A stretch of 64,000 nt of DNA from an uncultured Chloroflexia bacterium (GTDB taxonomy: Bacteria; Chloroflexota; Limnocylindria; Limnocylindrales; CSP1-4): NCBI GenBank assembly GCA_963813335.1, contig CAWEYL010000002.1:66923-130922 (forward strand), given 5' to 3'. Both the position numbers and the translations under genes were made by a program. This document shows positions 32,157-40,417 of the stretch, one piece after another (position 1 is the first letter of the stretch; each line of letters begins with the position of its first letter). The notes below the pieces were generated by a model that did not search any database, was not told where the DNA came from, and worked only from the letters and a program-made list of their open reading frames with translations.

Positions 32157-32185
32157 TTGCGCCTCCCGCGCCCATCGGGTACGGT
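32157..32185 (+). promoter_or_regulatory. Sigma70-type promoter of a small transcript
   Basis: TTGCGC (32157-62), 17 bp, TACGGT (32180-85). Confidence 0.6.
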
Positions 32186-32213
32186 TCTTGGGAACGAAAG
32201 GAGGTGATGTGCA

Positions 32214-32261
32214 GTGATCGACAGTAGTAGCTGCACCACCTCGCAGGAGATGGCCGTCTAG
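32214..32261 (+). CDS. Putative 15-aa peptide MIDSSSCTTSQEMAV
   Basis: GTG 9 nt after the GGAGG of AAAGGAGGTGAT; ends with TAG. Confidence 0.45.
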   Translation: MIDSSSCTTSQEMAV

Positions 32262-32290
32262 TCGGACACCCCTGTGGGTGGAAAGCTTTC

Positions 32291-32321
32291 GGACGCCGGC
32301 CCGCATGGGCCGGCGTTCGTG
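32291..32321 (+). terminator. Putative intrinsic terminator
   Basis: GGACGCCGGCCC-GCAT-GGGCCGGCGTTC hairpin with a weak U tail. Confidence 0.6.
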
Positions 32322-32379
32322 CGCCCGGGCCAGGCCCGCGGCCCATACTCCACCCCACGAGTCCCGAAGGAGCCATCCC

Positions 32380-32847
32380 ATGCGCGACGAGAAGACCGTC
32401 GCCCTCAACCGCAGAGCCCGCCACGACTTCACGATCGACGACACGTTCGAGGCCGGGATCGTGCTGACCGGCACCGAGATCAAGTCGCTGCGCGCCGGCA
32501 AGGCCAACTTGTCCGACGCCTATGCGCGCGTCGAGCGCAACGAGGCGTGGCTGATCGGCGCCCACATCGCGCCATTCGAGCAGGCCAACCGCTACAACCA
32601 CGAGCCCAAGCGGATGCGCAAGCTCCTGCTCCACCGCTCGGAGATCGACGAGCTGCTGGGGCGGGCCAAGGCCAAGGGCCAGACCATCGTCCCGCTGCGG
32701 CTGTACATCAACACCAAGGGCAAGGCCAAGATCGAGCTCGGCCTGGCCCGCGGCAAGCAGCTCCACGACCGCCGGCGCGACATCGCGGACCGCGACGCCC
32801 GCCGCGACGTCGACCGTGAGCTCGCGGACGCGCAGCGCGGACGCTAG
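32380..32847 (+). CDS. smpB: SsrA-binding protein
   Basis: NRRARHDF, EAGIVLTGTEIKSLR, RKLLLH, GKQLHDRR; AAGGAG SD. Confidence 0.97.
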   Translation: MRDEKTVALNRRARHDFTIDDTFEAGIVLTGTEIKSLRAGKANLSDAYARVERNEAWLIGAHIAPFEQANRYNHEPKRMRKLLLHRSEIDELLGRAKAKGQTIVPLRLYINTKGKAKIELGLARGKQLHDRRRDIADRDARRDVDRELADAQRGR

Positions 32848-32851
32848 GCGC

Positions 32852-33931
32852 GTGACGACGCCGCTCCCCGAGCGCCTGCGCATCGGCCCCGTCATCGAGG
32901 CGGTGGACGCCCATGCGGCGGGGGAGCCCGGTCGGGTCATCGTCGGCGGCGTCGCGGACGTCCCCGGCCAGTCGATGTTCGACAAGATGTCGTGGCTGCA
33001 GGCGAACCGCGACGACCTCCGCCTGCGGATGCTGCGCGAGCCACGCGGCTACCCGGCGGCGAACTGCAACCTGGTCCTGCCCTCGAACCATCCCGACGCG
33101 GACGCCGGCTACGTGATCATGGAGCAGGTCGAGTACCCCGGGATGTCCGGCACGAACACGATGTGCGTCGTCACCGTGCTGCTCGAGACCGGCCGGCTGC
33201 CGATGACCGAGCCCGTCACGGAGCTCACGCTGGAGTCGCCGGCCGGGCTGATCCGGGTCAGCGCCGAGTGCCGCGACGGCAAGGTCCTCGGGGTGACGTT
33301 CCGGAACGTGCCCGCGTTCGCGACCCATATCGCGGCGCCGGTCGAGGTCCCGCACCTGGGGACCGTCGTCGTGGACGTGGCCTACGGCGGCATGTTCTAC
33401 GTCATCGCGGACGCGGCGCCGTTCGGGCTGCGCCTGACCCCCGACGAGGGCGCCGACATCGTGCGCATCACCGAGATGATCAAGGCCGCCGCGAACGAGC
33501 AGCTCCCCGTGGTCCACCCGGAGCAGCCGGGGTTCGCCGGCATCACCATCGGCCAGCTGTCCGGGCCGGCCCACGATCCGGCGAACTCGCGGCGGAACGT
33601 CGTGACCGTCTCGACCGGGACGCTCGACTGGGAACGGCCGGCGACGTGGACCGGCGCCATCGACCGCTCGCCGTGCGGGACGGGGACCTCGGCCAAGATG
33701 GCCACGCTGGCCGCGAAGGGCGAGCTGCGCGTCGGGGACACGTTCCGCCACGAGGGCATCCTCGGGACGGTGTTCACCGGCCGCGTCGTCGAGGAGACGG
33801 CGCTGGGCCCGTACCGGGCGATCGTCCCGACCATCACGGGCCAGGCTTGGATCACCGGGTTCGCGAGCTACGTGGTGGACCCCACCGATCCCTTCCCGGA
33901 CGGGTTCACGGTCGGCGACATCTGGGCGTAG
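32852..33931 (+). CDS. Proline racemase superfamily protein (Ser/Cys active-site pair)
   Basis: DAHAAGEPGR, REPRG, YPGMSGTN, DVAYGGMFY, DRSPCGTGT. Confidence 0.9.
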   Translation: MTTPLPERLRIGPVIEAVDAHAAGEPGRVIVGGVADVPGQSMFDKMSWLQANRDDLRLRMLREPRGYPAANCNLVLPSNHPDADAGYVIMEQVEYPGMSGTNTMCVVTVLLETGRLPMTEPVTELTLESPAGLIRVSAECRDGKVLGVTFRNVPAFATHIAAPVEVPHLGTVVVDVAYGGMFYVIADAAPFGLRLTPDEGADIVRITEMIKAAANEQLPVVHPEQPGFAGITIGQLSGPAHDPANSRRNVVTVSTGTLDWERPATWTGAIDRSPCGTGTSAKMATLAAKGELRVGDTFRHEGILGTVFTGRVVEETALGPYRAIVPTITGQAWITGFASYVVDPTDPFPDGFTVGDIWA

Positions 33932-35148
33932 GCGACGACGGGCGCGGCGACCGGCACGGTTGACGCGACGGGGTCCGTGCTGGCCCGCCAGTAGAGCAGC
34001 ACGCCGGCAGCGGTCGACACCGAGCACAGCAGCAGCCCGGCCGTGACGTCGACCAGGCCGGCCTGGAGCAGCGCGCTCATCAGGAACGCCGCGACGATGC
34101 CACGCGCGCCGGTGATGGCGTTCCAGCCGGCCATCGCCGCGGCGCGCGCGCTCATCGGCGTGTTGTCGCTGACCACCGACGCGATGCCGACGTCGATCGA
34201 GGCACCTGCCGCGCCGCCCGCGAGAGCGGCGACCCACAGCACCACGACGCTCGGGGCGAACGCCACCGCGATGAGGGCCAGCAGGCCCAGGCTCGTGCCG
34301 AGGCGCATCGCGACCAGCGGGCCCTTGCGGTCGCTGATGGCACCCCAGGCCAGGAACGAGACGGTGGTCGCGGCCGCGGTCAGGATCCCGATGATGCCGA
34401 CGTCCGCCAGCGACAGGTCGAGCCGGTCGACGTAGACCAGCGCGTAGAGCGGGAGCGCGGCGATCAGCCCGCCACCGTAGAAGCCCTGTGCCAGGGCGAC
34501 CCGCGACAGGATCGGTCGCTCGCGGAGGGCGCGGACCGATTCCCGCGCCGAGAAGCCCGGCGGTCGCTCGGCCGCCTTCGCTTGGAAGCCGGCGTAGCCG
34601 ACGGCACAGACGACCCCGACCGAGCCGGCGAGCGCGACCGCCGTCGGGCCGCCCAGGCGATCGGCCAGGAGACCGCCGGCCAGTGCCGCGAGGGCACCGG
34701 CGGCGGCCCGGCCCGTCCCGAGCAGGCCGACGACCCGACCGAGCAGGCGGGCCGGGTACATCGCGCCCCACAGCCGCAGGTGGAAGGGACCGCCGAACGA
34801 GAGGCTGACCCAGAACACGATCGAGACGGCGATCATCACGGCCGCGGTCGGCCACACGTAGAGCAGGAGGAGCGATGCGGCGCCGGCGCCTCGGAGCAGC
34901 GCCAGCTGGCCGGGCGAGCGTGGTCCGAACCGCCCGGCGAACGCGCCGAGCAGGTTGGCGATGAAGGGTGCGGCGGCGAGCGCGGCGAGTCCGAGCGGCT
35001 CGAGGCCGCCGCGCCGGGCGATCGTGGGGAGCAGCGTCGTGACCAGCGCGACGCTCACGCCGACGCCGACGGCCGCGAGCAGGTCGAAGGCGAGATTCCG
35101 CCCGACCTCGCGCTGGGTCGGCGATGGGCGAAGCGATGGCCGGAGCAC
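33868..35148 (-). CDS. MFS transporter
   Basis: About 12 TM; GLLADRLG and GAISDRKG loop motifs. Confidence 0.8.
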   Translation of the reverse strand: MLRPSLRPSPTQREVGRNLAFDLLAAVGVGVSVALVTTLLPTIARRGGLEPLGLAALAAAPFIANLLGAFAGRFGPRSPGQLALLRGAGAASLLLLYVWPTAAVMIAVSIVFWVSLSFGGPFHLRLWGAMYPARLLGRVVGLLGTGRAAAGALAALAGGLLADRLGGPTAVALAGSVGVVCAVGYAGFQAKAAERPPGFSARESVRALRERPILSRVALAQGFYGGGLIAALPLYALVYVDRLDLSLADVGIIGILTAAATTVSFLAWGAISDRKGPLVAMRLGTSLGLLALIAVAFAPSVVVLWVAALAGGAAGASIDVGIASVVSDNTPMSARAAAMAGWNAITGARGIVAAFLMSALLQAGLVDVTAGLLLCSVSTAAGVLLYWRASTDPVASTVPVAAPVVAYAQMSPTVNPSGKGSVGSTT

Positions 35149-35328
35149 CGGGTACCTCGAAGCAGGCCCGCTTGGCCTGCGAGGTGAGCTGACGGGCTCG
35201 GCGTGGGTCTCGCCGTCGCGGACGGTCCGCGGTTCGCCCCAGGGTGGTGGGTCCCCCGTCCTCGATGAGGAGGTTCGGCCGTCGCCAATGCTACCAGCCC
35301 CGGCCGGCTCGCCCGTATGGGTCGTTGG

Positions 35329-37397: not shown

Positions 37398-38643
37398 TTA
37401 GCGGGCGCGGAGCAGCCGGCGGAGCGGCCGCGGGACCGCCGAGACGTCCAGCCGCCGGGCTCCGTGGAACGCCCTGAACCTGGCCGCCCCGCGTCGCATC
37501 GCGGTCGCGAACGCCTCGTCCTTCCCGAAGGCCGGATCCTCCAGCCACAGCCCGTTGATGACGAGCGTGCCGGTCGCCCGGTCCAGGCGCGGGTCCACCC
37601 GTGCGACCAGCCGGTCGCCCCACAGGATCGGCATCGTGTGCGGTCCCCAGCGGCGCTTGTGGACCGGCGTGTAGATCTCCCACGTGTACTCGAACCCGAA
37701 GACCGTCTTCGCCCGGCCGCGGGCGCTCACCGGATCGAGCGGGGCGAGCCAGCGTGACCTCGTCCTCCGTCGTGGTCTCGAGCGGCGCCCAGGCGGCCGG
37801 CACCGTCCCGGCGTCGAGGCCGCGGAGCAGGTCCGCGTCCGAGCCGAGCGCCAGCTGCGTCCCGCTCCAGCCCTCCGCGCGGACCTCGACCAGGGTCCCG
37901 TCGGCGAGCCGGCGCTCCCGCCAGGCCTGGAGCTCGGCCGGCGCCACGGTCCGCTTCAGGGCCTGGCTGACGCCCTTCAGCTTGGACAGGCCTTCCCAGG
38001 CGACCAGCTTCGTGAGCAGGAAGTCCTCGGCGGCCTCGTCCGCGCTCTCGCGGATCAGCTCGGCCGGCGCGACGGCATCGGTCGGCGCATAGACGCGCTC
38101 GAAGCGCTCGCGACGGGTGACCATCGCGTCGCCGATGCGCCACAGGTAGTGCAGCGCGAGCGAGCTGTCCTTCCGTCCCCGGTAGTCGTCGACCCGCGTG
38201 CGCGCCTCTGCCGTGTAGTCGCGGTTGCTGATCTCGCCGCGCTCGCGCAGGGCGACGCGCATCTCCTCGATCGCGGGGCCGTGCTCGGCCGCCACCTCCA
38301 CCCAGTCCGCGTGGTCGCGCTCGCGGCGCATGATCACGCGCCAGTGGGGGAGCTCCTCCATCGGCCGGACGGCCAGCCAGCCGCCCCAGTCGAAGAAGCG
38401 GCGCTCGCCATACGTCAGGCGAGCCCAGTCGTCCTGGCGGTAGTCCAGCACCCGCGCGTGGAGCATGAGGTCCTGGGCGCGGGCGACCAGCACGAGCGGG
38501 TCCAGCTGCAGGTGCTCCATCGTCCGCATGGCCTCCGCGGCGCCCTCGAGGCCGCGCCAGCGCCGGCCCGGCCAGAGGCCCTGGCGCCCGAGGATGTAGC
38601 GACGCGCCGTGGCGTTCGAGATCTCGATCGTGTCGTGGGCCAT
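37398..38643 (-). CDS. YcaQ/AlkZ-like winged-helix crosslink-repair glycosylase family protein (extra base near 37750)
   Basis: LQLDPL..VARAQDL.L.AR, LAPLDP after correction, FGFEYTWEIYTP..KRRWG, ILWGDRLVAR.D. Confidence 0.85.
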
Positions 38644-38734
38644 GCCCGCATCGTACGGGCGAAGTCGCCCGAAGGTGGCACCTACACGGGTTCGGTGCTA
38701 GCATCCCGCATCCGAACCGGTGCGTCGGACCTGT

Positions 38735-39109
38735 GGGGATGTGTGGTTTCGACAGGGCTTGGCTACCGGGGAACGCGAGCCGAGGACGCCACTGGGCCTC
38801 GTAAATCAGGTGGCAAAAAGAAGTACCTGGCAACCGCCAGTCGACTCTCGCTCTCGCTGCTTAGGCAGTAGAGTGAGCGTGGAAGCTGCCTCCGCCTCGC
38901 GGGTAGTGGAAGCGTCACTTAGCGGGGCTGCGATCCGGACAAGCGTCACGTAGTCCGGAGTCAAGCCCGATCTAGGGGCACGTGACTGGACCGCCCGGCA
39001 GAGTGCCGATGCCCGTCCGGGCGGTCGACGACAAACCATCGGACACGCTCGTAGTGGTCTCCGGCGAAGGGTCCTGGACGGGGAGTTCGACTCTCCCCCA
39101 TCTCCACCA
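38735..39109 (+). ncRNA. ssrA: tmRNA
   Basis: 5' GGGGAT...GGTTTCGAC; 3' GGAGTTCGACTCTCC...ATCTCCACCA; tag frame 38829-38864 encodes GNRQSTLALAA*; smpB nearby. Confidence 0.97.
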
Positions 39110-39169
39110 ACACGCTGCGCGATGGGGTGCCCCCGCGGTACCGTCTCCTCGCGATGGAGTCCGATCCCG

Positions 39170-40417
39170 TTGGCCACCGATAGCTCGTCCCGGGTCTCGG
39201 GCGAGGAGCTCGCGCTGCGGCTGGGTGTCCCACCCGAGCGGGTCGAGCGACTGGGGGACGGCGCGACGATCGAGCGCGACGCCGACGGACTGTTCGACCT
39301 CGGCGACGTGCACCGGTTGCGCCTCCTCCTGGCATTCGAGGCAGCGGGCGTGCCGCTCGACGCGCTGGTCGAGGCGAGCCGCGGCGGGACGATCAGCCTC
39401 CGCTACTACGACCAGCTCCATCCGACGCCCGGGCCCCTGTCAGGGAACTCCTACGCCGAGTTCCGGGCGTCGGCGGGTCCGGACGGGGCGCACCTGCCGG
39501 CGCTGTTCGCGGCCCTCGGCGTCGCCGAGCCGGATGCGGCGAGCCCGATGACCGCCGAGGACGAGGCGCTCCTCACCGACATGCTCGCCTCGATCGCCGA
39601 GACCGGGTACCCCGACCTCGCCCTGCGCGCGATCCGGATGCTGGGCGACGGTGCCCGTCGCGCGGCCGATGGGGCCCTCGCGACCTATGGCGAGGCGGTC
39701 GGCCGGATCGGCGACTCGGTCGCCGGGCTCCCGGTGGACGACGTCTACGAGCGCGTGCTCAAGCCGTGGGGCCGGTTCGCCCGGCGGTCGAGCGCGTACG
39801 CAGAATGGCTCGCCGAGCGCCATCTCAGCCGGGCGATCGATGAGTACAGCGTGTCCGAGACGGAGCGCATCCTCGAGGAGGCCGGGTACGTCGCCGCCCG
39901 CCTCGAGTCGCCGCCCGCGGTCGCGTTCATCGATCTGACCGGCTTCACGCGCCTGACCGAGGAGCGCGGCGACGAGGTGGCCGCGGCGACTGCGATGCGG
40001 CTCGGCGAGCTGACCGTCGACACGGTCCGGCGCGGGGGCGGCCGGGTGGTCAAGCTGCTCGGCGACGGCGTCCTCGTCCGATTCGACGAGGTGACGGCCG
40101 CCGCCGACTCGACCCTCGACCTGCTGGCGGCCCTGGCACCGGCGGGGCTGCCCACGGGCCACGCGGGCCTCGCGAGCGGACCGTTGATCGTCCGCGACGG
40201 CGACGTGTTCGGCCGGACGGTGAACCTCGCCGCGCGGGTCGCTGACGCCACTCCGGACGGCCACCTCTACGTCCCGGCGACGGTCGCCTCGACGTTGCCG
40301 CGCGACCGCTTCGACCTCCAGCCGGTCGGAGGCGCCGTCCTCCAGGGGATCGGCAGTGTCGCGCTCCTCGATGTCGTGCGAGCCCCGGGCGTGGGGGCGA
40401 CCGTCAGGACGGGCTGA
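39170..40417 (+). CDS. Class III adenylate/guanylate cyclase with N-terminal regulatory domain
   Basis: AFIDLTGFT, VKLLGDG, DVFGRTVNLAAR; start uncertain. Confidence 0.88.
   Translation: MATDSSSRVSGEELALRLGVPPERVERLGDGATIERDADGLFDLGDVHRLRLLLAFEAAGVPLDALVEASRGGTISLRYYDQLHPTPGPLSGNSYAEFRASAGPDGAHLPALFAALGVAEPDAASPMTAEDEALLTDMLASIAETGYPDLALRAIRMLGDGARRAADGALATYGEAVGRIGDSVAGLPVDDVYERVLKPWGRFARRSSAYAEWLAERHLSRAIDEYSVSETERILEEAGYVAARLESPPAVAFIDLTGFTRLTEERGDEVAAATAMRLGELTVDTVRRGGGRVVKLLGDGVLVRFDEVTAAADSTLDLLAALAPAGLPTGHAGLASGPLIVRDGDVFGRTVNLAARVADATPDGHLYVPATVASTLPRDRFDLQPVGGAVLQGIGSVALLDVVRAPGVGATVRTG

Follow-up and report, generated by a model that had tools for sequence, protein, structure and literature searches.

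What does the spacer ahead of smpB encode in an uncultured Chloroflexota bacterium of the class Limnocylindria, and why is it conserved more than the protein genes that neighbour it? In the 64,000-nucleotide stretch of contig CAWEYL010000002.1 that we analysed (positions 66,923 to 130,922 of the forward strand; hereafter the window), this spacer holds a promoter, a long Shine-Dalgarno (SD) sequence, a small open reading frame (sORF) of 15 codons and a terminator. An original prediction, made from the letters of the window, proposed that these form an unannotated, separately promoted RNA of about 130 nt whose SD is locked in a hairpin. Our analysis supports this proposal: the element is a genuine, conserved small RNA from a Chloroflexota RNA family not yet described, which explains the conservation of the spacer. 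As for its role, we tentatively favour an autonomous, ribosome-gated mini-mRNA that would report or buffer free 30S subunits and that, in Limnocylindria, would head the smpB transcription unit, a reading drawn from sequence comparison.

A conserved RNA family in Limnocylindria and beyond

The element was matched by DNA search in 24/24 genomes of the same genus. A covariance model built from 28 sequences (R1) then found it in 145/151 genomes of the order, with 27/27 genera and 97/98 high-quality genomes represented, and in 142/151 genomes of the class Limnocylindria (44/44 in family f1, 6/6 in f2, 41/49 in f3, 49/50 in f4 and 1/1 in f5). The class tallies, like the phylum tallies of the second model described below, include a few genomes flagged as unpublished, whose sequences were not used. 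The original prediction had proposed homologues and copy number as a check; genomes mostly contain one full-length match, and the additional strong matches in G022 and G009 come from separate contigs of assemblies that are fragmented. To our knowledge, Limnocylindria are known only from metagenome assemblies.

Beyond the class, 15/20 of the R1 loci fetched from other families of the phylum share the 5′ core, sORF and terminator, and the other five (L227, L234, L236, L240 and L241) were judged spurious. A sequence-only model of the 42-nt 5′ end (R2) matched 111/151 phylum genomes at E values up to 0.1 and 39/136 non-Limnocylindria genomes below 1e-4; weak R2 matches (E above about 1e-3) may be ordinary ribosome-binding sites and were not counted as members. 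Of 24 further loci, one is truncated by a contig end; in the other 23 the SD core precedes a start codon by 8-10 nt, and the ORF (15-31 codons) is followed by a terminator. This layout was seen in 13 families outside Limnocylindria, and searches of several others, such as f14, f19 and most of f21 and f22, did not find the element. The RNA with its sORF is therefore near-universal in the class Limnocylindria and widespread in the phylum Chloroflexota. In f32, whose genomes are about 6 Mb, the element lies 250-700 nt from a contig end in 4/4 loci (L228, L229, L230 and L232), where a repeat such as an rRNA operon may adjoin it.

Coverage beyond the phylum consists of one scan, in one genome per species, with a 21-nt pattern of the 5′ core that is specific to the Limnocylindria type; it gave at least 118 stretches, 80 of them among the matches listed. 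Four contigs carry labels from elsewhere (L119, Alphaproteobacteria; L120, Zixiibacteriota; L153, Steroidobacteraceae; L164, Saccharimonadales). They show the order peptidase-element-smpB and encode SmpB proteins 68-84% identical to the window's, and they are probably mis-binned.

In the window, the element and the gene that follows it comprise these parts:

32157-32162 (+): -35 box TTGCGC; CTTGC is invariant in 25/25 genus sequences, and a TTGNNN box is equally spaced in all five Limnocylindria families
32180-32185 (+): -10 box TACGGT, 17 nt past the -35 box; found in 24/25 genus sequences, with TAAGGT in L022
32193-32322 (+): predicted transcript of about 130 nt; conservation runs from GAACGAAAGG to just past the terminator, and RNA-library contigs begin at 32193-32199 and end at 32322
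32196-32208 (+): extended SD GAAAGGAGGTGAT; its 5′ GAAAG is predicted to be a free toehold and its 3′ part to be locked
32197-32208 (+): 12-mer AAAGGAGGTGAT within the SD, read directly from the sequence
32201-32242 (+): predicted lock hairpin H1, GAGGTG..GTGCAGT with GCTGCAC-CACCTC, the start codon and first codons lying in the loop
32214-32261 (+): sORF of 15 codons with GTG start and TAG stop (32259-32261), product MIDSSSCTTSQEMAV, read directly
32245-32249 (+): AGGAG, the second SD-like motif, 9 nt ahead of the stop codon; an SD-like tetramer recurs in relatives
32243-32276 (+): helix 3 (GCAGG.../...CCTGT), from the fold; it encloses a stop-codon hairpin, CCG 32254-32256 with CGG 32263-32265 and TAG in the loop
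32267-32281 (+): CACCC/GGGTG hairpin of the centroid structure; the G-rich GGGTGG is an alternative anti-SD partner
32290-32319 (+): intrinsic terminator from the fold, 13 bp (32290-32302 with 32307-32319), loop GCAT, then TTCGTG
32366-32847 (+): smpB including its own SD GAAGGAG (32366-32372), ATG at 32380; Pfam SmpB, 198 bits

Every part named in the original prediction is in the sequence. Its promoter, TTGCGC-17-TACGGT, is present and conserved; its GTG start at 32214 and TAG stop are confirmed, with an ORF maintained across relatives; and the pairings GAGGTG/CACCTC and GTGCAG/CTGCAC, like the CACCC/GGGTG stem, are found in the fold. The terminator hairpin is there with 13 bp rather than 12, and the GAAAGCTTTC palindrome, though present, is specific to this genome and absent from other members of the genus.

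The promoter call draws on the conservation of its boxes because the A/T-rich -10 and T-run rules of the scanner do not suit a genome of 72% G+C. A simple scan of the element for sigma-70 promoters and terminators accordingly gave 0 sites, its consensus rules being mismatched to such a genome. The -35 (CTTGC or TTGNNN) and -10 boxes hold a fixed distance in all five Limnocylindria families, those other than the window's having TANNNT- or GANNAT-type boxes at the -10 position. We infer both transcript ends, with an RNA that would start about 3 nt 5′ of a 13-nt perfect SD.

Contigs from a metatranscriptome, all of one RNA run that contained 0.04 of the words sampled, span the element, starting at 32193-32199 and ending at 32322. 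In two of them, 32322 is followed directly by adapter-like letters, which we take to be the start of an Illumina adapter. Summed word depth (31,378-36,866 over the element and 0-143 in the flanks) was not used, because contig depth cannot rank genes and the sum may include related species that share the conserved core.

An exceptionally long Shine-Dalgarno sequence in a predicted lock

The SD GAAAGGAGGTGAT, that is, the perfect 12-mer of the original prediction together with the preceding G, is complementary over 13 nt to the 3′ tail of this genome's 16S rRNA, GGATCACCTCCTTTCT (G000:C1:280803). The 12-mer exceeds what chance would give: it is unique within the window even when one mismatch is allowed (expected 0.04; a match in 4/100 shuffles), and the 2.54-Mb assembly holds it three times, as the 16S-end complement, as one other ribosome-binding site and as the element itself. 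The sole other gene of the assembly with the same 13-nt perfect SD, G000:C1:1071301, lies outside the window and encodes a 64-residue protein.

The calculated duplex energy with the 16S tail is -23.4 kcal/mol for the element's SD and -12.4 kcal/mol for smpB's own SD, and that of the lock, with the 5′ part folded alone, is -19.7 kcal/mol. Across 86 sequences, mean pairing probability is 0.16 for the toehold (the five bases before the core) and 0.69 for the GGAGGTG core, and 62/86 minimum-energy folds pair five or more of the 7 SD bases. With SD and start codon paired in a conserved fold, the element belongs among SD-sequestering translational control elements. The unusual length of the SD would be explained if only an SD of such length could compete with the lock.

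What is conserved is the principle of a lock, with a partner that varies from family to family. H1 pairs are kept in 96.6-97.1% of alignment cells, and the helix covaries at the level of the phylum, for example as GAGGTGATGCCT/AGGCATCACCTC in family f27, where it forms a perfect 12 bp. The lock partner is an ORF-internal anti-SD in f1, f2, f4 and f27, and a stretch 3′ of the stop codon in f18 and f8. In folds with a ribosome placed over SD and start, CCACCTC is released from the lock and pairs instead with the G-rich GGGTGG stretch further 3′ in 8/9 representatives of f1, f2 and f4; in this model, the re-pairing of the freed anti-SD gives a two-state RNA.

Over the whole element, 96.6% of alignment cells are paired among 87 distinct Limnocylindria sequences versus 87.4% in shuffles, with 0/500 shuffles reaching the observed value, although the alignment behind these pair counts was fitted to the model, which favours structure, and the sequences are kin rather than independent. 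Both-side changes occur in 17/30 pairs, and sliding the partners by 1-3 columns lowers pairing to 35-63%. Helix 3 has both-side changes in 5/7 pairs and the terminator compensatory changes in 10/12, with 98.7% of its cells paired. The stop codon lies within a hairpin loop in 75/86 minimum-energy folds, and an SD-like tetramer stands 6-18 nt ahead of it in 85/86 sequences; this second motif is GGAGGTG in families f3, f6, f8 and f18.

These data bear on whether the element could have arisen by chance, as an ORF with a hairpin in a G+C-rich spacer, or be merely the 3′ untranslated region and terminator of the upstream peptidase gene. G+C-rich spacers fold well, and the simple promoter and terminator scan found nothing. 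Set against this are the element's presence across class and phylum with compensatory changes, its own conserved promoter boxes, and its retention in family f3, where the upstream S41 peptidase gene is absent, so that we consider this origin scarcely credible. The fold of the element itself has a z-score of -3.2, with 1/200 shuffles equally stable.

The reading frame is kept while the peptide is free

An ORF of 13-28 codons is present in 177/177 complete unique Limnocylindria elements, five more being cut by contig ends, and ORFs in other families span 15-31 codons. Start codon and anti-SD are separated by 29, 32 or 35 nt in 127/127 sequences of the f1 and f2 types, every time in frame, and by 18 nt in 23 sequences of the f4 type; 27 sequences without the start or anti-SD anchors were left unclassified in this count. 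Across the ORF span, the two other frames contain 198 and 163 stop triplets. GTG and ATG starts are swapped in L084 and L088.

The peptide, in contrast to the frame, is under no constraint. Among 75 sequences from the 16-codon class, the three codon positions vary equally (entropy 0.48, 0.47 and 0.46), with no excess at the third, and insertions or deletions of 1 nt occur in 5/21 f3-type sequences, whose frames end at a UGA inside the conserved GAGGTGA. The recurrent residues C-T-T-S and T-E-V are those encoded by the anti-SD and the second SD-like motif, and Cys is absent from several f4 and f3 members. Ten peptides that we searched had 0 NCBIfam matches and 0 Pfam matches above cut-off. The element thus lacks the purifying selection on amino-acid sequence that marks a small-protein gene or a dual-function small RNA. 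As the ORF is always open and its peptide is unconstrained, we conclude that selection acts on ribosome passage and safe release in any frame, and so on a controlled ribosome encounter rather than a peptide.

The perfect spacing of SD and start, the ORF that is always open, and the N-terminal D-S-S and a Cys that recur across classes would be accounted for by a functional micropeptide: 13-31 residues with much Ser, Cys and Thr, perhaps metal-binding or modified, its synthesis tuned by the RNA fold. The flat codon-position entropy, the tolerated frameshifts of f3, the exact match of the conserved residues to the coding of two RNA motifs, the members that lack Cys, the ten peptides without a Pfam or NCBIfam family and a neighbourhood devoid of maturation or export genes all argue against it, and we regard such a peptide as very unlikely. 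The Ser/Thr/Cys-rich peptide precursor that the original prediction had offered as one possibility is not supported, on the same grounds. A ribosomally synthesized and post-translationally modified peptide precursor likewise finds no support, the neighbours being genes for an S41 peptidase, SmpB, BirA, GreA, MoeA and an MreB-like protein, and the 13-31 residues having no separate leader. In agreement with the original prediction, the peptides do not look like the hydrophobic, membrane-spanning type I toxins, since they are polar and rich in Ser, Thr, Cys, Asp and Glu (judged by eye, on the peptide only).

Two further features of the coding sequence were observed. The 177 unique elements end in TAG (110), TAA (54) or TGA (13), whereas 66% of the genome's long ORFs end in TGA; families f18 and f12 use TGA as the sORF stop. 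The codons after the start (32217-32229 in the window, and homologous positions) often read GAY AGT AGT. At 72% G+C, AGT should be a rare codon for Ser, and the recurrence of the motif in different classes may point to selection on the nucleotides themselves.

Neighbouring genes and the link to smpB

In Limnocylindria, the ribosome-rescue gene smpB immediately follows the element, in the same orientation, in 34/34 loci examined, and the element can serve there as an annotation marker for where the smpB transcription unit begins. Terminator and smpB start are often 19-40 nt apart (26-40 nt in f4, L079-L089), too close for a promoter to fit, so that smpB would be transcribed by terminator read-through. 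In L081, of family f4, a tmRNA (transfer-messenger RNA) gene follows smpB. The smpB genes of f4 (L079-L089) have no SD and are preceded by a conserved GACCGATG.

Elsewhere in the phylum the neighbours differ. None of 20 loci outside Limnocylindria has smpB within the fetched flanks, and the usual downstream gene is a short biotin-protein ligase, birA (Pfam, 6/6 tested), often followed by greA and lysS (both read by eye). This birA-linked version occurs in cultured Chloroflexota, making direct testing possible. Further downstream genes are greA (f17), moeA (f35), an MreB-like gene (f8) and a hydrolase. In f38 the next gene is a convergent Fic/DOC gene; a convergent ORF in L224 had a Pfam match below threshold only and was not used. 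Within f8, the element occupies the divergent gap between mreB and birA in opposite orientations in L235 and L237. The varied neighbours and the flipped orientation indicate that the family is autonomous and that its use as an smpB leader is a Limnocylindria trait.

This arrangement raises the question of a translation-dependent attenuator dedicated to smpB, in which the leader's translation, or a ribosome pause on its Ser/Thr/Cys codons or UAG, tunes read-through of smpB (and in some genomes ssrA) to translational stress. The order promoter, SD, sORF and terminator is the classical architecture, and like the trp, his and thr leader-peptide attenuators the element has a very short ORF with an unimportant peptide and a terminator before a structural gene. 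Terminated leader RNA accumulates in attenuators of that type. A short upstream ORF with an SD on the same strand as the gene is found throughout the Limnocylindria loci (34/34) and is not general in the phylum; the terminator does lie between ORF and gene. The constant smpB neighbour, the short gaps without promoter room, the f4 smpB genes without an SD, a stop codon 27-34 nt ahead of the terminator stem in Limnocylindria, and the TAG- and TAA-rich stops described above would all suit an attenuator.

Against it, the terminator is intact in 12/12 representatives in all four modelled states, including those in which a ribosome occupies the start, codon 5 or the stop, and constrained folds of these 12 representatives contain no antiterminator exclusive with the terminator, so that the element is not a classical attenuator. 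It further differs from the trp, his and thr systems in its locked SD, in having no fixed downstream gene and in its leader codons, which are not conserved and include no conserved regulatory run. Its Ser, Cys and Thr codons fall on RNA pairing elements, f18 and f12 stop at TGA, and other classes have birA, greA, mreB, moeA or a convergent gene next to the element. We therefore judge a dedicated attenuator unlikely. The gated leader for smpB read-through proposed in the original prediction stands insofar as smpB always follows in Limnocylindria, often without promoter room, and fails insofar as an antiterminator is missing and other genes take the place of smpB elsewhere.

A ribosome-gated mini-mRNA as the favoured explanation

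Under the mini-mRNA reading that we tentatively favour, a free 30S subunit alone would open the lock, nucleating on the toehold and then displacing the lock strand. The energies would permit this, at about -23 kcal/mol for pairing of SD and 16S tail and about -20 for the lock. The freed anti-SD would then re-pair with the downstream G-rich segment, and a single short round of translation would end safely before the terminator whatever frame was used, so that the RNA would read out or buffer free ribosomal subunits. In Limnocylindria, the smpB transcription unit (smpB-ssrA in at least one f4 genome) would begin with this same RNA, and smpB would be reached only via terminator read-through. We infer the gate from sequence and modelled energies. 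The ribosome-capturing decoy of the original prediction is compatible with, and close to, this reading. A more specific version, in which the family is a toehold-gated decoy that senses free 30S subunits through the 16S tail and is coupled in Limnocylindria to smpB/ssrA transcription, would amount to an undescribed regulatory principle, and we consider it quite unlikely. If true, it would be a natural case of translation controlled through strand invasion by the ribosome's own rRNA tail, and a new link between ribosome availability and trans-translation.

Several observations weigh against the gated mini-mRNA. The contigs agree with the predicted 130-nt RNA, but those of a single run cannot show its ends, strand or abundance, and the fitted alignment of related sequences behind the pair counts calls for similar caution. 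The steady-state fold hides the SD, and in this model most molecules may never be translated. With the terminator intact in every modelled state and no antiterminator among the constrained folds, a regulatory effect on smpB is so far without a structural basis. The absence of smpB from the flanks outside Limnocylindria and the reversed orientations within f8 count in the same direction, and the convergent Fic/DOC gene of f38 means that a cis role cannot be the general function of the family. A hibernation factor (Pfam Ribosomal_S30AE), encoded in the window's own genome and in 105/151 phylum genomes, lacks clean complementarity to the element, so that a role in subunit parking is not supported; families carry both the element and Ribosomal_S30AE, either one, or neither, with no pattern.

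Some of these observations would fit a trans-acting or dual-function small RNA, acting by base-pairing or protein binding, in which the sORF disposes of ribosomes drawn by an SD-like 5′ end and the adjacency of smpB reflects inherited gene order with passive read-through. The element is conserved across the phylum regardless of the downstream gene, its orientation is reversed between L235 and L237, its terminator is strong in all modelled states, its peptide is unconstrained, and its nucleotide conservation among genus sequences is higher than that of smpB and extends beyond the stop codon. What speaks against such an RNA is where the conservation lies: the only letters invariant across the phylum are AGGAGGTG, a TG two bases later and the TG of the start codon, which is to say the SD and start region, while the 3′ domain, from stop codon to terminator, differs between families and the C-rich anti-SD stretch is paired rather than exposed. 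The same distribution of conserved and variable parts is what we observed with a riboswitch in mind, which would call for a ligand-binding core common to all members. CsrA, the obvious binder of GGA motifs, is found in only 3/61 class genomes. On balance we hold a trans-acting role to be somewhat doubtful. A sponge for CsrA/Rsm was rejected, since the three class genomes with Pfam CsrA do not include the window's own; the same search matched 3/14 control genomes (E. coli, B. subtilis and T. maritima).

Relation to known RNAs

The Rfam scan that had been suggested as a check placed the element in no known family: none reaches its gathering score, and the sub-threshold matches came from a search at E values up to 10. 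The literature searched (main texts, with incomplete coverage) gave no account of the element, which is likewise without an Rfam, Pfam or NCBIfam match. The nearest of the sub-threshold matches, the CC2171 small RNA of Alphaproteobacteria (RF01867), scored 18.0 bits (E 0.092) against the window, short of its gathering score of 75. Its consensus starts with GAAAGGAGGUGAU, has GUG a few bases on and ends in a terminator, and in these respects it resembles the element; only the SD and terminator align, however, and the phylum, the middle part and the length differ, so that any relation would be one of analogy, not membership. CC2171 is reported to be an expressed small RNA of unknown function (10.1101/2022.01.24.477521).

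Other parallels can be drawn by mechanism. Like SD-sequestering hairpins and synthetic toehold switches, the element has a hairpin-held SD and start beside a single-stranded toehold, and opening it would take a complementary strand that pairs more stably than the lock does. Unlike them, its presumed trigger is the 16S tail rather than a small RNA, temperature or a ligand, and it is an independent gene rather than the 5′ untranslated region of a protein gene. The dual-function RNAs SgrS/SgrT and RNAIII/hld are also short and terminator-ended with a translated small ORF, but they have a conserved, functional peptide and a defined seed, neither of which we found in the element. The arfA type of trans-translation control similarly ties a small ORF and a hairpin to ribosome rescue, whereas the element's ORF has a stop codon and an unconstrained peptide and lies upstream of smpB itself.

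Other RNA features of the window

At gathering score, Rfam reports only a tmRNA and a c-di-AMP (cyclic di-AMP) riboswitch in the window, and only the tmRNA in 12 related loci. The tmRNA (119.5 bits) lies at 38735-39109 (+), 6 kb 3′ of smpB; ARAGORN, unlike Rfam, found no tmRNA gene at 38000-39800. Pairing between the element and the tmRNA was considered and dropped, the duplex energy (-103.6) being no improvement on that of shuffled sequences (mean -109). The c-di-AMP riboswitch (RF00379, 65.5 bits) is at 35160-35290 (-), directly upstream of a 426-residue ORF at 33868-35148 (-) that, judged by eye, appears to encode a multi-pass membrane protein.

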